DNA from: Gammaproteobacteria bacterium
Lineage (GTDB): Bacteria; Pseudomonadota; Gammaproteobacteria; Eutrophobiales; Eutrophobiaceae
DNA length: 64,000 nt
NCBI GenBank assembly: GCA_016193395.1
Contig: JACPSH010000004.1
Location: forward strand, 6,549-70,548
Direction of reading: 5' to 3'
Every line of letters starts with the position of its first letter. Position 1 is the first letter of the stretch. The notes beneath the pieces are model-generated. The model was given only the letters and a program-made list of their open reading frames with translations. It ran no database searches and had not been told where the DNA came from. This document shows positions 7,066 through 47,270 of the stretch, piece after piece. The translations under genes were made by a program, and so were the position numbers.

Positions 7066-7953
7066 ATGCAAGAGGTAAAGGGAAAGGTCGCATTCATCAC
7101 TGGCGGGGCGAGCGGCATTGGGCTCGGCATCGCGAAGGCCTGCGTGAACGCTGGCATGAAAGTGGTGATGGCCGACATCCGCCAGGATCACCTGGACGAG
7201 GCGCTCAAGTTCTTCAAGGACAAGGGCCAGGGCGGCCATGTCCACGGCATCAAGCTCGATGTGACGGACCGCGCGGCTTTCGAACGCGCCGCGGACGAGA
7301 CGGAACGCGTATTCGGCAAGGTCCACCTGCTGGTCAACAATGCCGGCGTCGGCGTCATCGGGCCGATCAGGCAGACCAAATACGCCGACTGGGACTGGGG
7401 GCTGGAAGTCCTGATCGGCGGCGTAGTCAACGGCATCCAGACCTTCCTGCCGCGCCTACTCAAGCACGGCGAAGGCGGTCACATCTGCAGCACCTCGTCC
7501 ATGACCGGTCTGCTCCCCATCGGACGCTCCGCCATCTACTCGCTGGCGAAAGCCGGGCTGGTCGGCATGTCGGAAGCGATGCGTGAAGAACTCCGGGAGG
7601 ACAACATCGGCGTGTCCGCGTTCTGCCCGGGCCCGGTGCAGACCAACATCCGCGAAACCGGCAAGCTGCGCCCCGAAAAATACAAGGACAGCGGTTACAT
7701 CGACGCCGAGAAGCAATTGCAGCAGCGCCCCAATTCCAGCAACTGGATGAGCCACGAGGAATGCGGCGAGCGCGTGCTCGCCGGGATCCGCCGCAACGAC
7801 CTGTACATTTTCACGCACCGCGAATTCAAGGAAGGCCTCGCGCGCAAGTGCGAGCTGATGCTGGATTCGTTTCCGGACGAGCCGATCGACACGGTGCGCG
7901 CCAACGAGATCGGTTTCCTGCTGTGGCCACCGGTATTTGCGAAAAGGAAATGA
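7066..7953 (+). CDS. Short-chain dehydrogenase/reductase (SDR)
   Basis: ATG 7066 is preceded by AAGAGGGGGA. It has the TGGASGIG dinucleotide motif, NNAG, and the YSLAK catalytic Tyr-x3-Lys. Confidence 0.85.
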   Translation: MQEVKGKVAFITGGASGIGLGIAKACVNAGMKVVMADIRQDHLDEALKFFKDKGQGGHVHGIKLDVTDRAAFERAADETERVFGKVHLLVNNAGVGVIGPIRQTKYADWDWGLEVLIGGVVNGIQTFLPRLLKHGEGGHICSTSSMTGLLPIGRSAIYSLAKAGLVGMSEAMREELREDNIGVSAFCPGPVQTNIRETGKLRPEKYKDSGYIDAEKQLQQRPNSSNWMSHEECGERVLAGIRRNDLYIFTHREFKEGLARKCELMLDSFPDEPIDTVRANEIGFLLWPPVFAKRK

Positions 7954-14345: not shown

Positions 14346-14681
14346 TTATTTCGCCAAATACTCCGCCAGCGCTTCCAGCTCCGCGTCACTGATCTCGGTC
14401 TTGCGGAAAAAGGGCATGATGGAAACGCCCTTGCGGACGAATTCCTTCGTAATCTCCGCCGTGAGGTCAGTGCGTTCCTTTAGTGTGCCGGGCTTCTTCC
14501 CGCCGTACTTCGCTTCGAGCGCCTGCGTGCCCGGATGATCGGGGCCGGGCGCGTGACACGGCGCGCACCATTTCTGATATACCGCCTGTCCGCGCGAATG
14601 GCCGGCGCCTTCGGCGGCCCAATCCACGGGCGCGAAGACCAGCATGAGGACCGCCGGCAGAATCACCCGCGCCGCGGTCAC
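14346..14681 (-). CDS. Cytochrome c subunit of a p-cresol methylhydroxylase / eugenol hydroxylase-type flavocytochrome
   Basis: The GTG start overlaps the flavoprotein stop (GTGA at 14678-14681). It has a signal peptide and a single CAPCH heme motif, about 110 aa like PchC/EhyA. The remainder of the 315-aa track ORF is a frame artefact. Confidence 0.8.
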   Translation of the reverse strand: MTAARVILPAVLMLVFAPVDWAAEGAGHSRGQAVYQKWCAPCHAPGPDHPGTQALEAKYGGKKPGTLKERTDLTAEITKEFVRKGVSIMPFFRKTEISDAELEALAEYLAK

Positions 14682-16321
14682 GTCCTCTTCCCCTTGCGAT
14701 CTCGCAGGTGCTTCGGCCAGATCCCGTAGCGGCCAGGCGAGAGAATGCCGTTGGGATCGATTGCGTCTTTCACCGTTTCGTGGAAACGAAGCAGCGCGTG
14801 GTTGTTGAAGGAGTACGTCGCCATGACCTCGTCCTGGTAGGCCGGCGCCGTCCGATATTCGCCCCAGCCATGCTCCGCGGCGATCCGGACCAGTTTGCGG
14901 AATGCCTCGCGGTTCCTGCGGTTGGTCTCGACGTCCTTTGTGATCGGGAAGCCGAAGATAAAGATGAACGCGCGCTGCCAGTAGGTCGTCGCCACCGCCA
15001 GCGGACTGATCGGCAGACCGAGTTCCTGCGCCGCGGCGGTAAACACCCGCTGCGCCTCGAACACGGCCTCGCCGGTGCGCGGGATGATGGGCGAGAACCA
15101 GACGTGGCCTTCTCCGGGCGTCGGGTTGATCGTGGAACGCGCGCCGATGAAGAACATCGACAGGTTCGGGATCCCGAACGCGACCTTGTGCACTTTCTCC
15201 TTCTGCTCCGCGGTCAGCGGCAGCTTGTAGAACGCCGTGTCTTCGAACCGGGCGCCGGAGATGGCGGAGAAACGCTCCTTCGAATACTCCCACTGCGCCC
15301 GGATCACCTTTTCCGGGCCGTAGAACTGCAGCTGGGCGGCCCAGAAACCGACGCTGTTCGTCTTGCAGTAGCGTTCCAGGTCCGCCAAGTTCGGCCCACC
15401 GGGTGTCGCCATCTTCGCCCGCACCTCGGGCGGCGGGACATAGCGAAGCTGTTCGCCGGGGTTCAACGGGCCGAGTAGAGGGCTGCCGATAAACGGCATG
15501 CCGGTATAGATGCCGTTGTTCTCGAGGTGGTTGACGATGTCGACCAGCGGGATCAGGTCACCACGGTTGAACACCGACACCGTGCCGGACAGGTAGGCCT
15601 CCGGTTCGGGCATCAGCCAGAATCCCATCTTCGTGACGATGCCGAAGTTCGACTGGGAGAACATGCCGTCGATCCAGGGGCCGAAACCGACCTTGTACTG
15701 TTGCCAGGTCTGCGCGCCGGGCAGCGCGCCCATCCCGGTGCGCATCACTTCGCCGTTGGCGAGCACGACTTCCAAGCCGCAGTGCGCGTCGAAATGGTTT
15801 CGGTACATGGCGGCCGTGTAGCCGCCGCCGCGGTCCAGCGCGTTGCCGATCAGGCTGCCCCAGCCGGGATCCGGCGTGTCGATCCAGAGCTTGTGGCCGT
15901 TCTCCTGAAGTTGCCGGTACAGGTCGAAATAACTGACACCGGGCTCGACCAGGCAGGAGGCATTGCCTTCGTTCACTTCCAGCACGCGGTTCATGCGCTT
16001 CAGATCGAGCACGACGCATCCCGACAGCGTCGGCGCCGAGCCGCCGTAGCCGAGGTTCTTCCCGGTGGAGACGGGATAAAGCGGGACACGGTAGCGGTTG
16101 GCGATACGGACGATCTGCTGCACCTGTTCGACGCCGTCGGGCGCGACCGCGGCGGACGCGACCAGTTCTTCCTCTTCGCCCCAATACGGTGAGTAGGCGT
16201 CGCGGTAGAGCGCGACGTCCTCGTCGCTGCTGAACACCCATTGCCTACCGACAACCGATTCGAACTGTGAGAGGGCCGCGGCGAAATCCGTACTGCTTAT
16301 ACCCGGAGGCAGCTTCATCAC
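14678..16321 (-). CDS. VAO/PCMH-family FAD flavoprotein subunit (p-cresol methylhydroxylase / 4-alkylphenol or eugenol hydroxylase-like)
   Basis: 547 aa with an FAD-binding PCMH-type domain (VAPDGVEQVQQIVRIANRYRVPLYPVSTGKNLGYGG) and a VAO-type cap domain. No N-terminal signal peptide is visible. Confidence 0.85.
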   Translation of the reverse strand: MMKLPPGISSTDFAAALSQFESVVGRQWVFSSDEDVALYRDAYSPYWGEEEELVASAAVAPDGVEQVQQIVRIANRYRVPLYPVSTGKNLGYGGSAPTLSGCVVLDLKRMNRVLEVNEGNASCLVEPGVSYFDLYRQLQENGHKLWIDTPDPGWGSLIGNALDRGGGYTAAMYRNHFDAHCGLEVVLANGEVMRTGMGALPGAQTWQQYKVGFGPWIDGMFSQSNFGIVTKMGFWLMPEPEAYLSGTVSVFNRGDLIPLVDIVNHLENNGIYTGMPFIGSPLLGPLNPGEQLRYVPPPEVRAKMATPGGPNLADLERYCKTNSVGFWAAQLQFYGPEKVIRAQWEYSKERFSAISGARFEDTAFYKLPLTAEQKEKVHKVAFGIPNLSMFFIGARSTINPTPGEGHVWFSPIIPRTGEAVFEAQRVFTAAAQELGLPISPLAVATTYWQRAFIFIFGFPITKDVETNRRNREAFRKLVRIAAEHGWGEYRTAPAYQDEVMATYSFNNHALLRFHETVKDAIDPNGILSPGRYGIWPKHLRDRKGKRT

Positions 16322-33743: not shown

Positions 33744-33819
33744 TGGTGGGCCGTGCAGGAATCGAACCTGCGACCAACTGGTTAAAAGCCAGCTGCTCTA
33801 CCGACTGAGCTAACGGCCC
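33744..33819 (-). tRNA. tRNA-Lys (anticodon UUU)
   Basis: The reverse complement reads GGGCCGTTAGCTCAGTCGGTAGAGCAGCTGGCTTTTAACCAGTTGGTCGCAGGTTCGATTCCTGCACGGCCCACCA. It has a 7-bp acceptor stem, anticodon loop CUUUUAA, T-loop GGTTCGATTCC and an encoded CCA. Confidence 0.92.
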
Positions 33820-33820
33820 G

Positions 33821-33855
33821 GGGGAAGTGAAAAGTATAAAGTGAAAAGTGGAAAG
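33821..33855. repeat. Tandem 7-nt array (TGAAAAG family), unpaired half-element next to tRNA-Lys
   Basis: GGGGAAG TGAAAAG TATAAAG TGAAAAG TGGAAAG, the same unit as the hairpin arms at 40645-40760 and 41426-41511. Confidence 0.8.
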
Positions 33856-36849: not shown

Positions 36850-38628
36850 ATGCGCAGCCATTACTGCGGACAACTGTCCGCCGCACTGATCGATCGGGAA
36901 GTCGAACTGTGCGGCTGGGTGCACCGCCGCCGCGACCACGGCGGGGTGATCTTCATCGATCTGCGCGACCGCGAGGGCATCGCCCAGGTGGTGTTCAATC
37001 CCGAGCACCCGGTGCCGTTCGAGGCCGCCAATGCGCTGCGCAACGAGTTCGTGGTGCGGGTCAGGGGGCGCGTACGCCACCGGCCCGAAGGTACTGTCAA
37101 TCCAGACCTGCCGACCGGAGAAGTCGAGGTAGTAGGCGCTCACATCGAGGTATTGAACCCGGCCAGAACCCCGCCCTTCCAGCTCGACGACGAGAACCTG
37201 AACGACGACCTGCGGCTGCGTTACCGCTACGTCGATCTGCGCCGGCCGGTGATGCAGGAGAACCTGCGGCTGCGCAGCCGGATCACGCGCATCCTGCGCG
37301 AATTCATGGACCGGCACGGATTTCTCGAGATTGAAACCCCGATCCTCACCAAGGCGACGCCCGAAGGCGCGCGCGACTATCTGGTGCCGAGCCGCACGCA
37401 TCCGGGCCATTTCTTCGCCCTGCCGCAGTCGCCGCAATTGTTCAAGCAGTTGCTGATGATGTCCGGTATGGATCGCTACTACCAGATCGCGCGCTGTTTC
37501 CGCGACGAGGATCTGCGCGCCGACCGCCAGCCGGAATTCACGCAGCTCGACATCGAGGTGTCGTTCATGGACGAGGCGGCGATCACCGATCTGATGGAAG
37601 ATATGATCCGGCACCTGTTCCGCGAGGCGATCGGCGTCGAGTTGCCGGCGCGCTTCCCGCGCATCACGCACGAAGAGGCGGTGCGGCGTTTCGGCACCGA
37701 CCGGCCGGACCTGCGCAACCCGCTCGAGTTCGTCGAGATCGCCGATCTGGTGCGCGAGGTGAATTTCAAAGTATTTGCCAGACCCGCCAGCATGGCGAAC
37801 GGCCGCGTCGCCGCCATGCGCCTGCCGGGCGGCGGCGAACTGCCGCGCTCCGTGGTCGATAGCTACGAGGAATTCGTGAAGCAGCACGGCGCGAAGGGTC
37901 TCGCCTATATCAAAGTGAACGAGATCCGGGATGGGCGCGACGGCCTGCAGTCGCCGATCCTCAAGTTCCTGCCTGATGACGTGATCCAGGCGGTACTCAA
38001 GCGCGTTGGCGCGCAGACCGGCGACCTCGTCTTCTTCGGCGCTGACAAGCGCAAGGTGGTGAACGATTCGCTGGGCGCGCTGCGCAACAAGATCGCTCAC
38101 GATCTGAACCTGCTCCGCGGCGAATGGGAACTCCTGTGGGTGGAGGATTTCCCGATGTTCGAATACAACGAAGAGGAAAAGCGCTGGGACCCGATGCACC
38201 ACCCGTTCACCGCGCCGCGCGTCGCGATGCCCGCGCAACTGACCGCGGATCCCGGCGGCTGCCTGTCACGCGCCTACGACCTGGTGCTGAACGGCATCGA
38301 GTTGGGCGGCGGGTCCGTGCGCATTCATCGCCCGGAAATGCAGAAGGCGGTGTTCCAGTTGCTCGGCATTTCCGAACAGGACGCGGAGGAGAAGTTCGGC
38401 TTTCTCATCAGCGCGCTGGACTTCGGCTGCCCGCCGCACGGCGGCATTGCCTTCGGCCTCGATCGGCTGGTGATGCTGATGGCGGGCATGCATTCGATCC
38501 GCGACGTGATCGCCTTCCCCAAGACCCAGACCGCAAGCTGCCTGCTGACCTCGGCGCCGTCCCCCGCCAGCGCGACGCAGTTGAAGGAACTGGGGATCCG
38601 CGTGGCAACCCCCGCCAAACCGAAATAA
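36850..38628 (+). CDS. aspS: Aspartate--tRNA ligase
   Basis: [43 protein letters not shown], plus class II motifs ([26 protein letters not shown], and a GLDR-type motif). Confidence 0.95.
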
Positions 38629-38639
38629 TTCCTGGCGGG

Positions 38640-38766
38640 ATGGCCGCTCCCGGCCCTCCCTGGCCTCCGCGGCACCTGTACTTCCATGTGCAATGGCCGC
38701 TCCCGGCCCTCCCTGGCCTCCGCGGCACCTGTACTTCCATGTGCAATGGCCGCTCCCGGCCATCCC
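38640..38766. repeat. Tandem repeat, 53-bp unit x ~2.3
   Basis: ATGGCCGCTCCCGGCCCTCCCTGGCCTCCGCGGCACCTGTACTTCCATGTGCA occurs at 38640-38692 and identically at 38693-38745. A partial third copy follows. Confidence 0.9.
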
Positions 38767-38850
38767 GCCCCGCATCGTCGTTCAGTGGAGCCGGATTTAT
38801 ACGGCCGGATAGCCTGTTCCAGCCAGTTATGCGGGGCTTGCGCCCGGATG

Positions 38851-38888
38851 GTGTACCAAGTACACTGAGCTTATTGTATTACGTACAC
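38851..38888. promoter_or_regulatory. Two TGTA-N5-TACA palindromes, candidate NrtR operators
   Basis: GTGTACCAAGTACAC (38851-38865) and TTGTATTACGTACAC (38874-38888), with centres 23 bp apart. They end 9 nt before the nrtR start codon. Confidence 0.5.
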
Positions 38889-38896
38889 TAAGCAAC

Positions 38897-39559
38897 ATGT
38901 ACAACTACATTTACCCCCATCCCGCGGTGTCGACGGACATCGTCCTCTTCACCATCGAGGAGGAAAAACTGAAGGTCCTGCTGATCCAGCGCGCGGCCGA
39001 TCCGTTCCGCGATCACTGGGCGCTGCCTGGCGGTTTCGTCGAAATCGATGAAGACCTGGAGGCCGGCGCGCTGCGCGAGCTGGGGGAGGAAACCGGCGTG
39101 ACCGGTGTCTGGCTCGAACAGTTGTACACCTTCGGCCGGCCGGATCGCGATCCGCGCGAGCGCGTCATCACCATCGCCTACTATGCGCTCGTGCCCATCG
39201 ATCGGCTGCACGTCCGTGCCGCCTCCGATGCGCGCGACGCCCGCTGGTTCGAGTGGAAGAACCTGCCGCCGCTCGCCTTCGATCACCGCGAGATCATCGA
39301 CCGCGCGCACCGGCGCCTCGCGGCGAAGCTGGATTACTCCAACATCGCGCTGCAATTCATGCCGAGCCGTTTCACGCTCGGTGAACTGCAGAAGGTCTAC
39401 GAGATCATCCGCGGCGAGGCGCTCGACAAACGCAACTTCCGCAAGCGCGTACGCTCCTGGGGCAGCATCGAGTCCACCGGCGAGCGACGCAACGGCAAAC
39501 ATCGCCCGGCCCGCCTGTTCACGGCCAGGGAACCCGGGCGCGTGGAGTTCGTGAAATGA
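38897..39559 (+). CDS. nrtR: NrtR-family Nudix-related transcriptional regulator of NAD metabolism
   Basis: 220 aa. It has an intact Nudix box ([24 protein letters not shown]) and a C-terminal wHTH block ([27 protein letters not shown]...HRPARLF). It overlaps the nadA start (ATGA). Confidence 0.8.
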
Positions 39560-40638: not shown

Positions 40639-40643
40639 ACAAA

Positions 40644-40760
40644 GTGGAAAGTGAAAAGTACAAAGTGTAAAGGAGGAACTGCCGCGCACCTCCATTCATG
40701 GCCCTACGCTGTTTCCGTCTCTTTGCTTTTCACTTTCAACTTTTGACTTTTGACTTTTCA
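40644..40760. repeat. Hairpin whose arms are tandem 7-nt units (TGAAAAG family), locus A
   Basis: The left arm is TGGAAAG TGAAAAG TACAAAG TGTAAAG. The right arm is CTTTTCA CTTTCAA CTTTTGA CTTTTGA CTTTTCA. Positions 40645-40665 pair with 40721-40739. Confidence 0.85.
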
Positions 40761-40785
40761 CTCTGGCCCTGGCCCGAAACTGCAG

Positions 40786-41448
40786 ATGCACAAGGAAAGC
40801 GTCGTGCTGGTGCACGGCCTGTGGTTCAACGGCCTCGACATGTCCCTGTTACGCCTGCGGCTCAACCGCGCCGGATACAATGCGCGCCAGTTTTCCTATC
40901 CAAGCGTGCGCTCCTCCCCGCTCATGAATGCCATGGCGCTGAATGCCTTCATGCGCCGTTTGAACTCGGACACGGTGCACCTGGTCGGCCACAGCCTCGG
41001 CGGCATCATCATCCGCCACCTGCTGCAGGAATATCCGGATCAGCGGCCGGGACGCGTTGTCACGCTGGGCACGCCGCACCATTCCAGCAGCGCCGCACGC
41101 ACGCTTTCGCACTGGCTGCCCGGCCGCATCGTGCTGGGCAAAAGCGTCCACGACGGTCTGCTCGGCGGCGCGCCGCGCTGGCCGGCGCAGCGCGAACTGG
41201 GCTGCATAGCCGGAACCCTGCGCCTCGGCATGGGGACGATCGTGCCGGGGATCCCGAGGCCCAGCGACGGAACTGTCGCCGTAGAGGAAACGCAACTGTC
41301 GGAGATGCGCGATCACATCGCGCTTCCGGTCTCGCACTTCGGCATGCTGCTCTCGTCCCGGGTCGCGAAGGAAGTCGTGCATTTCCTCCGGCACGGCCGC
41401 TTCAGCGACCACGCTGCGCGTGAGTTCAAAGCGAAAAGTGGAAAGTGA
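40786..41448 (+). CDS. Alpha/beta hydrolase (lipase/PGAP1-like fold)
   Basis: ATG 40786 (MHKESVVLVHGLWFNG), as the earlier track start lies inside the repeat array. It has a GHSLGG nucleophile elbow. The last codons (KAKSGK) are encoded by the next repeat. Confidence 0.75.
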   Translation: MHKESVVLVHGLWFNGLDMSLLRLRLNRAGYNARQFSYPSVRSSPLMNAMALNAFMRRLNSDTVHLVGHSLGGIIIRHLLQEYPDQRPGRVVTLGTPHHSSSAARTLSHWLPGRIVLGKSVHDGLLGGAPRWPAQRELGCIAGTLRLGMGTIVPGIPRPSDGTVAVEETQLSEMRDHIALPVSHFGMLLSSRVAKEVVHFLRHGRFSDHAAREFKAKSGK

Positions 41449-41511
41449 AGAGCAGGAAACGCCCGCCGTTGAAGTCTGCCGCGCTTTGCACTTTTCACTT
41501 TTGACTTTCCA
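41426..41511. repeat. Hairpin with 7-nt-unit arms (TGAAAAG family), locus B
   Basis: The left arm is TCAAAG CGAAAAG TGGAAAG TGAAGAG. The right arm is CTTTGCA CTTTTCA CTTTTGA CTTTCCA. Confidence 0.85.
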
Positions 41512-41585
41512 CTGCCTTTACGCCTCACCGGCACCGGGTGTTAAGATTCGCCGAATACCACCACCCGTATCCATTCCGGTATCCC

Positions 41586-42338: not shown

Positions 42339-42340
42339 AC

Positions 42341-42410
42341 CGTATCTTGTATCTTGTTTCTCGTATCGCGCAGGATCCATGTTGCGAGATGCGAGATACG
42401 AAAGACGAGC
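42341..42410. repeat. Hairpin with 7-nt-unit arms (CGTATCT family), locus C
   Basis: The left arm is CGTATCT TGTATCT TGTTTCT CGTATCG. The right arm is TGCGAG ATGCGAG ATACGAA AGACGAG. Positions 42341-42357 pair with 42384-42400. Confidence 0.8.
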
Positions 42411-44783: not shown

Positions 44784-45207
44784 GCCCCGGTCCGGGGAGG
44801 CGAAGGAATTCAACTGGCCGGTGCGTGTCTACTACGAGGACACGGACTCCGGCGGCGTCGTCTATCACAGCAACTACCTAAAATACATGGAGCGAGCGCG
44901 GACGGAATGGCTGCGCGCCCTGGGCTATTCCCAGAACCAACTGCAATCGAAGGAGGGCGTGGTCTTCGCGGTCACTCGCATGAACATCCAGTTTTTCAAG
45001 CCCGCTCGCATCGACGACCTGCTGGAGGTGCGCACGCGCATCATCCGCAGCGGCGGCGCGAGCCTGACGTTCGATCAATCGATCTTCGCCGCAACCGGCG
45101 AACTGATCTGCCGCGCGGATGTGGAGGTCGCCTGCCTCGACGCGCGCACGTTCAGGCCCGCGCGTCTGCCGGCGGCCCTGCGATTGGAGACGAACGATGT
45201 CGACTGA
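44752..45207 (+). CDS. ybgC: Tol-Pal-associated acyl-CoA thioesterase YbgC
   Basis: The [29 protein letters not shown] hotdog-fold signature is present. The start is uncertain (TTG at 44752 or 44734), with no in-frame ATG before the conserved core. Confidence 0.75.
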
Positions 45208-45871
45208 TCTTTCCTACCTGCACCTGATCCTCAACGCCAGCATCGTCGTCCAGTTCGTCATGCTCATGCTGCTGCTTGTGTCAATCGTTTCGTGGGCCAT
45301 GATCCTGAGCAAACGCGTGGCGCTCGGCAACGCGCGCCGCGCCGCCGACCGGTTCGAGGAGCAGTTCTGGTCCGTGGAAGACCTCAGCCCGCTCTACAAC
45401 CGCGTAACCAGCAAGCGCACTGCGGCCTTCGGCATGGAGCGCATTTTTGAATCCGGCTTCAAGGAATTCGCGCGCCTGCGCAAGCAGGAGGGGATCAGCT
45501 CCGAGGCGGTGATGGAAGGCGCGCAACGCGCCATGCGCGTCGCGCTGAACCGCGAGATCGAGACGCTCGAGATCAACCTCTCGTTCCTCGCGACGGTGGG
45601 ATCGACCAGTCCTTACGTCGGATTGTTCGGCACGGTCTGGGGCATCATGAACAGCTTCCGCGCGCTCGGCAACGTGCAGCAGGCAACCATCTCCCTGGTC
45701 GCGCCGGGGATCGCGGAGGCGCTAATCGCCACCGCGATGGGCCTGTTCGCCGCCATCCCGGCCGTGATTGCCTACAACCGCTACTCGAACGACGTGGAGC
45801 GGCTGATCAACCGCTACGATACATTCATGGAGGAGTTCTCAGCCATCCTCCACCGCCACGCACATGCATAA
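45197..45871 (+). CDS. tolQ: Tol-Pal system protein TolQ
   Basis: Start ATG 45197 ([22 protein letters not shown]). It has MotA/TolQ/ExbB motifs, including VGLFGTVWGIM. Confidence 0.9.
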   Translation: MSTDLSYLHLILNASIVVQFVMLMLLLVSIVSWAMILSKRVALGNARRAADRFEEQFWSVEDLSPLYNRVTSKRTAAFGMERIFESGFKEFARLRKQEGISSEAVMEGAQRAMRVALNREIETLEINLSFLATVGSTSPYVGLFGTVWGIMNSFRALGNVQQATISLVAPGIAEALIATAMGLFAAIPAVIAYNRYSNDVERLINRYDTFMEEFSAILHRHAHA

Positions 45872-45873
45872 AG

Positions 45874-45965
45874 CAGCTACCGGCTACCAGCTACCAGCGA
45901 CAAGGGAAGGCCTTGTTGCAAGACCCGAGTCCCGAACCCCGAGTCCCGAACCCCGAGTCCCGAAC
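45874..45965. repeat. Two different 7-nt-unit arrays around a short hairpin (locus D)
   Basis: The first array is AGCTACC GGCTACC AGCTACC AGCGACA. The core hairpin is CAAGG-gaagg-CCTTG. The second array is (CCCGAGT CCCGAAC) x3, ending 2 nt before the tolR ATG. Confidence 0.85.
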
Positions 45966-45967
45966 TG

Positions 45968-46390
45968 ATGCGCCCACGCAGCCGCCGCAAAGTCATGTCC
46001 GAGATCAACGTCGTCCCCTACATCGATGTGATGCTGGTACTGCTGGTCATCTTCATGATCACGGCGCCGCTCTTGAGCCAGGGCGTGGCGGTCGAACTGC
46101 CACAGGTGCCATCCCAACCCATGCCGCCCACCAACAACGAGCCGGTAATCATCAGCGTGGACAATCATGGCAATTTCTTCATCAACTACGGCGAGGCGCA
46201 GGACAAGCCGATCAACCCGGGAACACTGGCCAGCCGCGTCGCCGCCCTGCGCAAGTACAAACCGACAATCCCGGTGTTCGTGAAGGGCGACAAGGACGTG
46301 AATTACGGCCGCGTGGTGGAACTGATGGCCGTGCTCCAAGCCTCCGGCGTGGAGGGCGTGGGGCTGGTGACGGAGCCCCTGGAACGCTGA
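45968..46390 (+). CDS. tolR: Tol-Pal system protein TolR (ExbD/TolR family)
   Basis: 140 aa, EINVVPYIDVMLVLLVIFMITAP (alternative ATG at 45995). Confidence 0.9.
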   Translation: MRPRSRRKVMSEINVVPYIDVMLVLLVIFMITAPLLSQGVAVELPQVPSQPMPPTNNEPVIISVDNHGNFFINYGEAQDKPINPGTLASRVAALRKYKPTIPVFVKGDKDVNYGRVVELMAVLQASGVEGVGLVTEPLER

Positions 46391-46393
46391 GGA

Positions 46394-46422
46394 GGGACTC
46401 GGGGTTCGGGACTCGGGACTCG
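46394..46422. repeat. 7-nt-unit array (locus E), reverse complement of the array upstream of tolR
   Basis: GGGACTC GGGGTTC GGGACTC GGGACTC G. Its first 22 nt (46394-46415) are the perfect reverse complement of 45926-45947 and 45940-45961. Confidence 0.9.
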
Positions 46423-46448
46423 TGTTTCATAACATTTAAACCTCCTGC

Positions 46449-47270
46449 GTGCTCACTTCCGGCATCCGGCTTCCTTCGCTCGTCGTGTCCATCCTGCTGC
46501 ACGCCGTGCTGGCGCTGCTGCTGGTTCTGAACATCGAGCTCCTGCCGCACAAGCCCGTACCTCCCGTGGCAAACGTGAACATCGTCAGGACCGTCACCGT
46601 CGACAGCGCAAAGGTGGACGCGGAACTCGAACGGCTGCGCGACATCGAAAGAAAGAAAGAAAACGAACTGAAGCGCAGGGAGGAGGAACTCAAGTCGCGG
46701 ATCGAGGAGCTGCGGAGAAAGACGGCCGTTGCCGAAACAAAGCGCAAAGAGGAGGAAAAGCGCCTGGCCGAAATCGAGAAGAAGAAGGACGAAGAACAGA
46801 AGCTGCGCGAGGCGGAAGAGATGAAGGCCGCCGTACTGAAGAAAAAGCAGGAGGAAGAGACCCAGAAGAAGGCCGAGGAGGAACGGAAACAGAAGGAGGA
46901 GCAGAAGCGCAGGGAGAACGAGGAACAGCTCAAGAATCAGATGGAAGTAGAACAGCGCGAACAGGACGCGGAGCGCCTGCGCCGGGAACAGGGCGAGCTC
47001 GACCGTTACAAGGCGCGCATCAAAGACGCCATCCGCCGCGAGTTCAACACATCCGGACTGCCGCCCGGGCTGTCGTGCATCCTGCAGATACGGATGATCC
47101 CGGGAGGCGAGGTTGTGGCGGTTCGCGTGTCGAAGCCGAGCGGCAATCCGGTGTTCGACCGGCGCGCCGAGGTTGCGGTGAGCAAGGCCGCGCCGCTGCC
47201 AGTCCCGGAGAATGTCGAGTTATTTGAAAAGATGCGTGAAATTAATTTAACGTTTGCACCCGAACCCTGA
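46449..47270 (+). CDS. tolA: Tol-Pal system protein TolA
   Basis: GTG start, an N-terminal TM anchor, a long Lys/Glu/Arg-rich helical domain, and a C-terminal TolA/TonB-like domain. Confidence 0.8.
   Translation: MLTSGIRLPSLVVSILLHAVLALLLVLNIELLPHKPVPPVANVNIVRTVTVDSAKVDAELERLRDIERKKENELKRREEELKSRIEELRRKTAVAETKRKEEEKRLAEIEKKKDEEQKLREAEEMKAAVLKKKQEEETQKKAEEERKQKEEQKRRENEEQLKNQMEVEQREQDAERLRREQGELDRYKARIKDAIRREFNTSGLPPGLSCILQIRMIPGGEVVAVRVSKPSGNPVFDRRAEVAVSKAAPLPVPENVELFEKMREINLTFAPEP

Follow-up and report, generated by a model that had tools for sequence, protein, structure and literature searches.

In a 64,000-nt stretch of contig JACPSH010000004.1 from an uncultured high-GC gammaproteobacterium (hereafter the window), the tolR gene is bracketed, within 2–3 nt of its start and stop codons, by two tandem heptamer arrays that are mutually reverse complementary. 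We identify these arrays as GGGRYTC repeats, a variant within the known class of G-rich heptamer simple sequence repeats (SSRs) capable of forming G-quadruplexes (G4s). They are probably ordinary heptamer microsatellites of the intergenic spacers of this lineage, and their position on both sides of tolR most likely results, as a by-product, from the rule by which such arrays are placed at the ends of open reading frames (ORFs). A control device specific to tolR is unlikely, because the arrays are ordinary members of their class and close relatives are without them.

Two complementary arrays around tolR

The gene order of the region, yebC-ruvC-ruvA-ruvB-ybgC-tolQ-tolR-tolA-tolB-pal-cpoB, is that of the canonical gammaproteobacterial cluster, and both arrays sit in spacers between the co-oriented genes tolQ, tolR and tolA, with the two partners 432 nt apart and the entire tolR gene between them (Table 1). 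Tandem Repeats Finder (TRF) described the upstream array as 3.0 copies of a 14-nt period with 100% matches, ending 2 nt before the tolR ATG; the downstream array begins 3 nt past the tolR stop codon. Within the units GGGACTC and GGGGTTC, G1–3, T6 and C7 are invariant and position 4 varies between A and G. Copies of the 22-mer CGAGTCCCGAACCCCGAGTCCC lie at 45926–45947(+), 45940–45961(+) and 46394–46415(−), and no further copy was present in the window, even at three mismatches. Between the arrays, complementarity extends over 24 nt exactly, over 27 nt at 96% and over 29 nt at 93%. The initial annotation had reported the positions of the arrays and of the tolR start and stop codons together with the 22-nt complementarity, and all of these were correct by TRF and exact-match search; the 22-mer was likewise found twice upstream and once, reverse-complemented, downstream, with 0 matches in 100 dinucleotide shuffles. 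Both arrays are canonical G4 motifs (G3N1–7 × 4) and represent two of only four such motifs in the 64 kb; the motif of the downstream array lies at 46394–46417 and that of the upstream array on the minus strand.

A second, unrelated AGCTACC array (45874–45898, array A) and a 9-bp hairpin, both also noted initially, are indeed present ahead of the upstream array. Array A begins 2 nt past the tolQ stop codon, and its final unit constitutes the 5′ arm of the hairpin (arms 45897–45905 and 45911–45919, with one G-U pair).

The ATG at 45968 is the true start of tolR, because four relatives share its basic N-terminus (MRxRxRRK) and one of these has Ile in place of the second Met. Furthermore, the arrays are not a product of assembly, because the 721 nt that cover both of them recur with 100% identity in a Logan contig (L001) from an independent assembly. 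GC-rich short repeats can be mis-assembled, but an assembly or sequencing artefact is extremely improbable here: the arrays (29–42 nt) are shorter than the reads, and comparable arrays occur in relatives from other samples.

Table 1. Coordinates of the tolR arrays, the surrounding genes and the other repeat features of the window (MFE, minimum free energy).
Feature	Position	Strand	Basis and remarks
G-rich heptamer SSR, 6 units, (CCCGAGT CCCGAAC)x3 on mRNA strand	45924–45965	− (G-rich strand antisense to tolR)	TRF
G-rich heptamer SSR, 4 units, GGGACTC GGGGTTC GGGACTC GGGACTC G	46394–46422	+ (G-rich on coding strand)	TRF
Heptad array A, unit CTACCAG / AGCTACC, ~3.6 units	45874–45898	+	TRF, spacer comparison
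Local 9-bp hairpin, arms GCGACAAGG / CCTTGTTGC, loop GAAGG	45897–45919	+	MFE and centroid local folds
tolQ	45197–45871	+	NCBIfam TIGR02796, E=1.8e-91; stop 45869–45871
tolR, 140 aa	45968–46390	+	NCBIfam TIGR02801, E=2.6e-43; ATG 45968, stop 46388–46390
tolA, GTG start	46449–47270	+	NCBIfam TIGR02794, E=1.4e-38
Inverted heptad pair, nadA–hydrolase spacer	40639–40768	+	Fold −41.7 kcal/mol, z −3.2
Inverted heptad pair, AAAGTGR family, hydrolase–yebC spacer	41433–41516	+	Repeat search and fold
Inverted heptad pair (GTATCTT... / ...GCGAGAT), yebC–ruvC spacer	42340–42410	+	Fold −31.6 kcal/mol, z −3.6
Single AAGTGAA-family heptad array	33825–33855	+	Immediately upstream of tRNA-Lys(UUU), 33744–33819, minus strand

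Period-7 repeats and the placement rule

Ten period-7 arrays were found in the window compared with 0.1 in shuffles, and none with periods of 5, 8, 10 or 11. All ten are intergenic and fall into 6 of the ~30 spacers of at least 40 nt, namely those upstream of tRNA-Lys and between nadA and a hydrolase gene, the hydrolase gene and yebC, yebC and ruvC, tolQ and tolR, and tolR and tolA. The tolR arrays thus exemplify a trait that is general in this genome, since period-7 arrays are enriched across the spacers of the window. The CCCGAGT family is represented by the tolR pair only, the other eight arrays belonging to different heptad families, and no other cistron in the 64 kb is bracketed by the same 22-nt pair, a possibility that the initial annotation had raised.

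G-rich heptamer SSRs are known as GGGAATC in Xanthomonas and as GGGGA(C/T)T in Nostoc (Rehm et al. 2015, PMC4692102), with a unit of the form GGGANTN that comprises a G3 tract and is conserved at positions 1–4 and 6. Xanthomonas campestris pv. campestris carries 186 such arrays, ~90% of them intergenic and most between co-oriented ORFs, and 70 of the 186 are arranged in inverted pairs; in Xanthomonas the modal length of four units equals the smallest number with which a G4 can form. Relative to the ORFs, the G-rich strand is found just past a stop codon or, in antisense, just ahead of a start codon, and length and sequence vary among close relatives (PMC4692102). The tolR arrays agree with this description in that they are tandem heptamers with a G3 tract and conserved T6 and C7, constitute canonical G4 motifs, lie between co-oriented ORFs with four units downstream and six upstream, and follow the sense-after-stop and antisense-before-start placement; moreover, the heptads of the tolR spacers differ in length and sequence among three relatives (L002, L003 and L005). 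They differ in the unit itself (GGGRYTC rather than GGGAATC), in the host, and in that the partners are separated by an entire gene, unlike the local hairpin pairs of Rehm et al. The known arrays are dispersed in many copies over the host genome; the 64 kb examined here hold a single CCCGAGT-family pair, and other high-GC contigs are rich in the family. The window also contains AT-rich and mixed heptad families, which lie outside the analysis of Rehm et al.

To examine placement beyond the window, metagenomes were scanned for GGGRYTC × 3, which yielded at least 120 stretches, nearly all on contigs of 60–73% GC, and 80 contigs (L090–L169) were analysed using strict arrays and an ORF caller based on GC content at third codon positions (GC3) that had been validated on the window. 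The common units were GGGATTC, GGGACTC, GGGGTTC and GGGGCTC, and the modal length was four units (37 of 87 arrays). Arrays with the G-rich sequence on the coding strand started within 10 nt of a stop codon in 19 of 33 cases, compared with 6 of 36 in the opposite, C-rich orientation. A start codon was present within 50 nt in 26 of 42 C-rich cases, compared with 13 of 33 G-rich ones. GGGRYTC arrays therefore reproduce the mode of four units and the position after a stop codon, and show a weaker bias towards the position before a start codon. The same contigs contained 216 period-7 arrays in 477 kb, against 5–8 arrays for each of the periods 5, 8, 10 and 11; no G-tract was present in 51 of the 216, and some of their units resemble the other families of the window. 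An apparent set of 62 intragenic arrays came from a relaxed array pattern combined with longest-ORF calls and was discarded.

The similarity of neighbouring arrays was also compared, in samples of n = 6–9. The median shared run was 22.5 nt for same-direction neighbours, 15.5 nt for bracket pairs, 15 nt for hairpin pairs and 12 nt between contigs, and a shared run of at least 22 nt occurred in 5% of random pairs of arrays of the same family. On one contig, neighbouring arrays are more alike than random arrays of the same family, irrespective of their orientation, which argues that the 22–24-nt match at tolR results from local unit usage or copying and not from selection for pairing.

These patterns are consistent with a model in which replication slippage in a 7-nt register gives rise to arrays and alters their copy number, units within and between neighbouring arrays become homogenised by slippage or local copying, and arrays persist only where they are tolerated, that is, outside coding sequence. 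The orientation bias would place the 5′ end of the G-rich strand against the nearest ORF, and the mRNA would hence be G-rich right after a stop codon and C-rich and unstructured right before a start codon, possibly reflecting selection against G4s or stable structure in translation-initiation regions. The two tolR arrays would be mutually reverse complementary because each side of this short gene obeys the placement rule. Among the long SSRs of bacteria, heptanucleotides form the largest class (Mrazek et al. 2007, as cited in PMC4679880 and PMC4692102), and polymerase slippage has been proposed as the source of long bacterial SSRs (summarised in PMC4679880 and PMC4692102); similarly, multiple-locus variable-number tandem-repeat (VNTR) analysis of Xanthomonas relies on many 7-bp VNTRs of diverse units whose copy number varies among strains (PMC8002079). 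The window resembles these SSR and VNTR surveys in its noncoding period-7 excess, its many units and the variability of copy number and units between close relatives; in the form in which they are summarised there, the surveys did not treat inverted pairing or the bracketing of genes.

Turnover of heptads at orthologous spacers

All TolR homologues found came from uncultured Gammaproteobacteria, and a TolR search of genome contigs returned, among the matches listed, relatives at no more than 61% identity (Thiodiazotropha, Sedimenticolaceae and others). Within the high-GC clade (64–67% GC), the same spacers bear heptads of different sequence. The closest relative (L002, TolR 90–92% identical) is without either tolR array and has CCACCAG × 2 in a 21-nt tolQ–tolR spacer and GTATCTC × 2 downstream of tolR. 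Another clade member (L003, TolR 79%) carries YYACAAG × 4 and GATACGA × 4 upstream of tolR and an ordinary hairpin without heptads downstream, and a third (L005, TolR 78%) has five GTGGAAA-type units upstream and a 15-nt heptad-free spacer downstream. In the low-GC relatives L086–L088 (TolR 74–75%, 45–49% GC) no heptads were present and the spacers were compact (12–41 nt between tolQ and tolR, 5–8 nt between tolR and tolA). Neither CCCGAGT/GGGACTC arrays nor any other complementary arrays flanking tolR were found in the relatives examined. The two spacers, to which the initial annotation had pointed as the informative comparison, thus hold unrelated heptads or are compact (5–41 nt) in relatives.

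The array beside the tolQ stop codon is orthologous in the window (45874–45908), in L002 (1303–1321) and in L003 (5306–5337), with the units CTACCAG × 4, CCACCAG × 2 and YYACAAG × 4, respectively, and a total of 34 nt in both the window and L003. Within each array the units have changed in concert, as slippage or homogenisation would produce, and the locus thus illustrates clearly, on a small scale, how a bacterial microsatellite can evolve in concert. The yebC–ruvC spacer likewise holds an inverted heptad pair in the window (42340–42410), L003 (1630–1746) and L005 (6525–6615), built from three different units; the L003 pair spans from 1 nt after the stop codon to 3 nt before the ruvC ATG and folds at −59 kcal/mol (z −9.9). 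Across these three loci, the architecture of the pair is kept and its sequence is not.

Comparison with relatives also bears on the proposal, made in the initial annotation, that tolR is a recombination-bounded unit. The 22–24 bp of perfect inverted identity on both flanks would suit an invertible or exchangeable cassette. However, recombination between inverted repeats would flip tolR, disrupting the operon, and would neither excise nor exchange the gene; among the relatives tolR was never found inverted, and no recombinase or integrase gene was found in the tol-ruv neighbourhood (ruvABC-ybgC-tolQRAB-pal-cpoB). Moreover, tolR has not been exchanged as a cassette, because TolR divergence tracks that of TolQ in every comparison (TolQ/TolR identities of 92/90, 82/79, 83/78 and 78/74%) and the GC3 of tolR equals that of tolQ. 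A cassette origin is therefore very improbable.

Predicted long-range pairing and tolR expression

The observation that the arms could close a loop around the tolR ORF agreed with in silico folding. The MFE structure of 45860–46460 (601 nt) contained the closed long-range helix, as did the centroid structure; the arm–arm duplex was predicted at −67.3 kcal/mol with a pair probability of 0.99, and keeping the downstream arm unpaired was predicted to cost 52 kcal/mol. If formed in vivo, such a helix would bury the initiation region of tolR and suffice in length for RNase III. Processing stems for RNase III bracket the 16S and 23S rRNAs in rrn operons, where long-distance pairing encloses an entire gene. 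The tolR helix would, by analogy, enclose its gene in a loop; unlike the rRNA stems, which are conserved and co-varying, its arms are missing from the nearest relatives and it is known here from predicted folds.

A helix selected to set TolR output relative to TolQ and TolA, acting through occlusion of an initiation region without a Shine-Dalgarno (SD) sequence or through a processing site, would be consistent with the predicted stability, with the position of the arms at 2–3 nt from the start and stop codons, and with the expansion of the spacers, which are compact in more distant relatives. We nevertheless regard it as rather improbable. The closest relative is without both arms, and the heptads of other clade members are either absent or not complementary; the arrays are of a generic repeat class, for which the placement rule is enough to give the bracket geometry; and the similarity of neighbouring arrays is independent of orientation. 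Transcription-coupled translation would, in addition, be expected to hold the arms apart for most of the lifetime of the mRNA. The tuning of TolR stoichiometry suggested initially is thus not supported; judged by the refuting evidence that the initial annotation had itself named, which turned on the arrays carried by relatives, it is contradicted. The accompanying remark that no GGAG-like motif precedes tolR was confirmed; it is not distinctive, since an SD sequence was present at only 2 of the 10 window starts checked. A terminator and promoter scan gave nothing above shuffles, the weak terminator-like matches within the downstream array being not significant.

Each array could instead be an independent cis-element (a G4, an i-motif or a site for a repeat-binding protein) that acts on transcription, 3′-end stability or SD-less initiation. 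The four-unit bias and the strand and position bias at ORF ends, in Xanthomonas and in the metagenomic sample, accord with this possibility, as does the membership of both arrays among the few G4 motifs of the window; furthermore, oligonucleotides of the Xanthomonas and Nostoc repeats form G4s in vitro (PMC4692102). A precedent for SD-less initiation is provided by the TAACTGA heptamers of Beggiatoaceae, which lie a few nucleotides ahead of starts without an SD sequence and for which a role as binding sites of a protein was proposed (MacGregor 2015, PMC4679880); the family also occurs in Thiocystis, cyanobacteria and Bacteroidetes, and its arrays are nearly always direct and in one orientation (one indirect repeat in 170 sets; PMC4679880). 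Like these and the short tandemly repeated repetitive (STRR) heptamers of cyanobacteria, the upstream array ends a few nucleotides before an SD-less start and covers the expected ribosome-binding site; unlike them, its unit is different and G-rich, and a TAACTGA-like family was detected only in a Sedimenticolaceae locus (L038) and not in the window. Against such a role, Rehm et al. identified no regulatory function for the class (PMC4692102), and the unit turnover at orthologous spacers is a poor fit to a sequence-specific binding protein. The G4 model of ViennaRNA did not favour a quadruplex over hairpins and altered no fold. G4 formation also cannot account for the entire phenomenon, because many co-occurring heptad families have no G-tract. 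On balance, we consider independent elements unlikely.

The interpretation of the tolR arrays as ordinary heptamer microsatellites in rule-bound positions has to be weighed against several observations. Only 6 of the 42 C-rich metagenomic arrays lie within 10 nt of a start codon, so that the tolR bracket is unusually tight on this side, and no equally tight bracket around a single cistron was found among the 80 contigs. The array pair near nusG in L101 encloses more than nusG alone, the arrays of the other leading candidate, in L125, sit inside a long reading frame, and the candidate brackets in L158, L112 (at 2514) and L133 were rejected because their left-hand arrays were chance matches. Both tolR arrays share the exact alternating 14-nt super-unit, which is better explained if they have one origin or were homogenised than if slippage produced each of them wholly independently. 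The samples behind the pair-similarity comparison are small. The genome was examined over 64 kb, in which no other CCCGAGT-family array occurs; the abundance of the family was observed on other contigs. Finally, the duplex is predicted to be very stable and, if formed in vivo, must affect tolR initiation or mRNA processing, whether selected or not.

We hold that the predicted helix is a side effect and not a conserved regulatory device, and see a small chance that it has a lineage-specific effect on tolR expression. A more specific version of this possibility, to which we likewise give little credence, is that the pair was recently acquired and that its predicted GC-rich duplex of ~29 bp serves as an rRNA-type processing stalk or as a translational gate that uncouples TolR from TolQ and TolA. 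As a stalk, it would allow RNase III to cut out tolR as a separate, nearly leaderless mRNA; as a gate, it would shut off tolR initiation on transcripts that are not actively translated. Either would be a case of a microsatellite creating cistron-level regulation de novo.

For tolR itself the arrays are of little significance, the bracket being most likely a by-product. The broader results concern the repeat class. Many high-GC bacteria, and by no means only Xanthomonas and Nostoc, are rich in heptamer SSRs whose strand and position next to stop and start codons are strictly biased. These repeats turn over fast at orthologous spacers, yet the 7-nt period and often the inverted-pair architecture are kept. 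The spacers of an essential envelope operon, normally tight, can be widened by such arrays, which, as the folds suggest, may also incidentally create very stable long-range RNA pairings. The tolR locus thereby offers a convenient natural test case for the effects of repeats on operon expression.

Other heptamer arrays and minor observations

Three spacers of the window hold local inverted heptad pairs of the families AAAGTGR/YCACTTT and GTATCTT/GCGAGAT, which begin 0–8 nt past the preceding stop codon and fold as long hairpins. In the nadA–hydrolase spacer, (AAAGTGN)x5 at 40639–40672 stands right behind the nadA stop codon and (NCACTTT)x6 at 40725–40768 ends 17 nt before the hydrolase ATG; the pair in the yebC–ruvC spacer begins 3 nt past the yebC stop codon. 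Repetitive extragenic palindromes and the bacterial interspersed mosaic elements built from them (REP/BIME) are enterobacterial intercistronic palindromes that form stem-loops and can shift the stability of one part of an mRNA relative to another. By analogy, the local heptad pairs look functionally comparable; unlike REP/BIME, which have a palindromic consensus and an associated transposase (RAYT), the heptads share only their 7-nt periodicity, and their families differ by spacer and genome. Two further readings were abandoned: that of the local pairs as miniature inverted-repeat transposable elements, since the loops have no common sequence, and that of integron attC-like sites, since neither a GTTRRRY core nor an integrase was found. 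An Rfam scan returned tRNA only.

The TGA stop codon (41446–41448) of the alpha/beta-hydrolase ORF (40786–41448) is supplied by an AAAGTGA-family heptad array (41433–41453), and a change in copy number or unit would therefore alter the C-terminus of the protein. The (CACTTTT)-type array 5′ of tRNA-Lys(UUU) contains TATACT, a −10-like hexamer (33744–33855), and may overlap the promoter or leader of the tRNA.

Around the downstream tolR array, a local fold of 46389–46446 pairs GAGGAG at the tolR stop codon with CUCCUG just before the tolA GTG, enclosing the G-rich array and joining stop and start; it is an alternative to the long-range helix and is not significant when compared with shuffles (z −0.7).

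Among the metagenomic contigs, a 483-aa reading frame in L125 (445–1896, minus strand) runs through several GGGATTC-type arrays, which are read as SRIP/DSGIR-like repeats. Either heptad arrays are tolerated in frame, three units amounting to seven codons, or the gene is disrupted; in the homologous contig L145, other units occupy these sites. The Sedimenticolaceae metagenome-assembled genome L038 carries TAACTGA-type arrays (CTGATAA...) at 7716–7757 and 14650–14745, including one inverted pair, which suggests that the TAACTGA family is more widely spread among sulfur-oxidising Gammaproteobacteria.

A longer repeat was also observed in the window, in a 268-nt spacer bounded by genes ending at 38628 and starting at 38897. 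Here, the 53-nt unit ATGGCCGCTCCCGGCCCTCCCTGGCCTCCGCGGCACCTGTACTTCCATGTGCA is repeated 2.4 times at 98% identity (38640–38766), and the near-duplicate motif GTACACTGAGC / GTACACTAAGC follows at 38850–38893.

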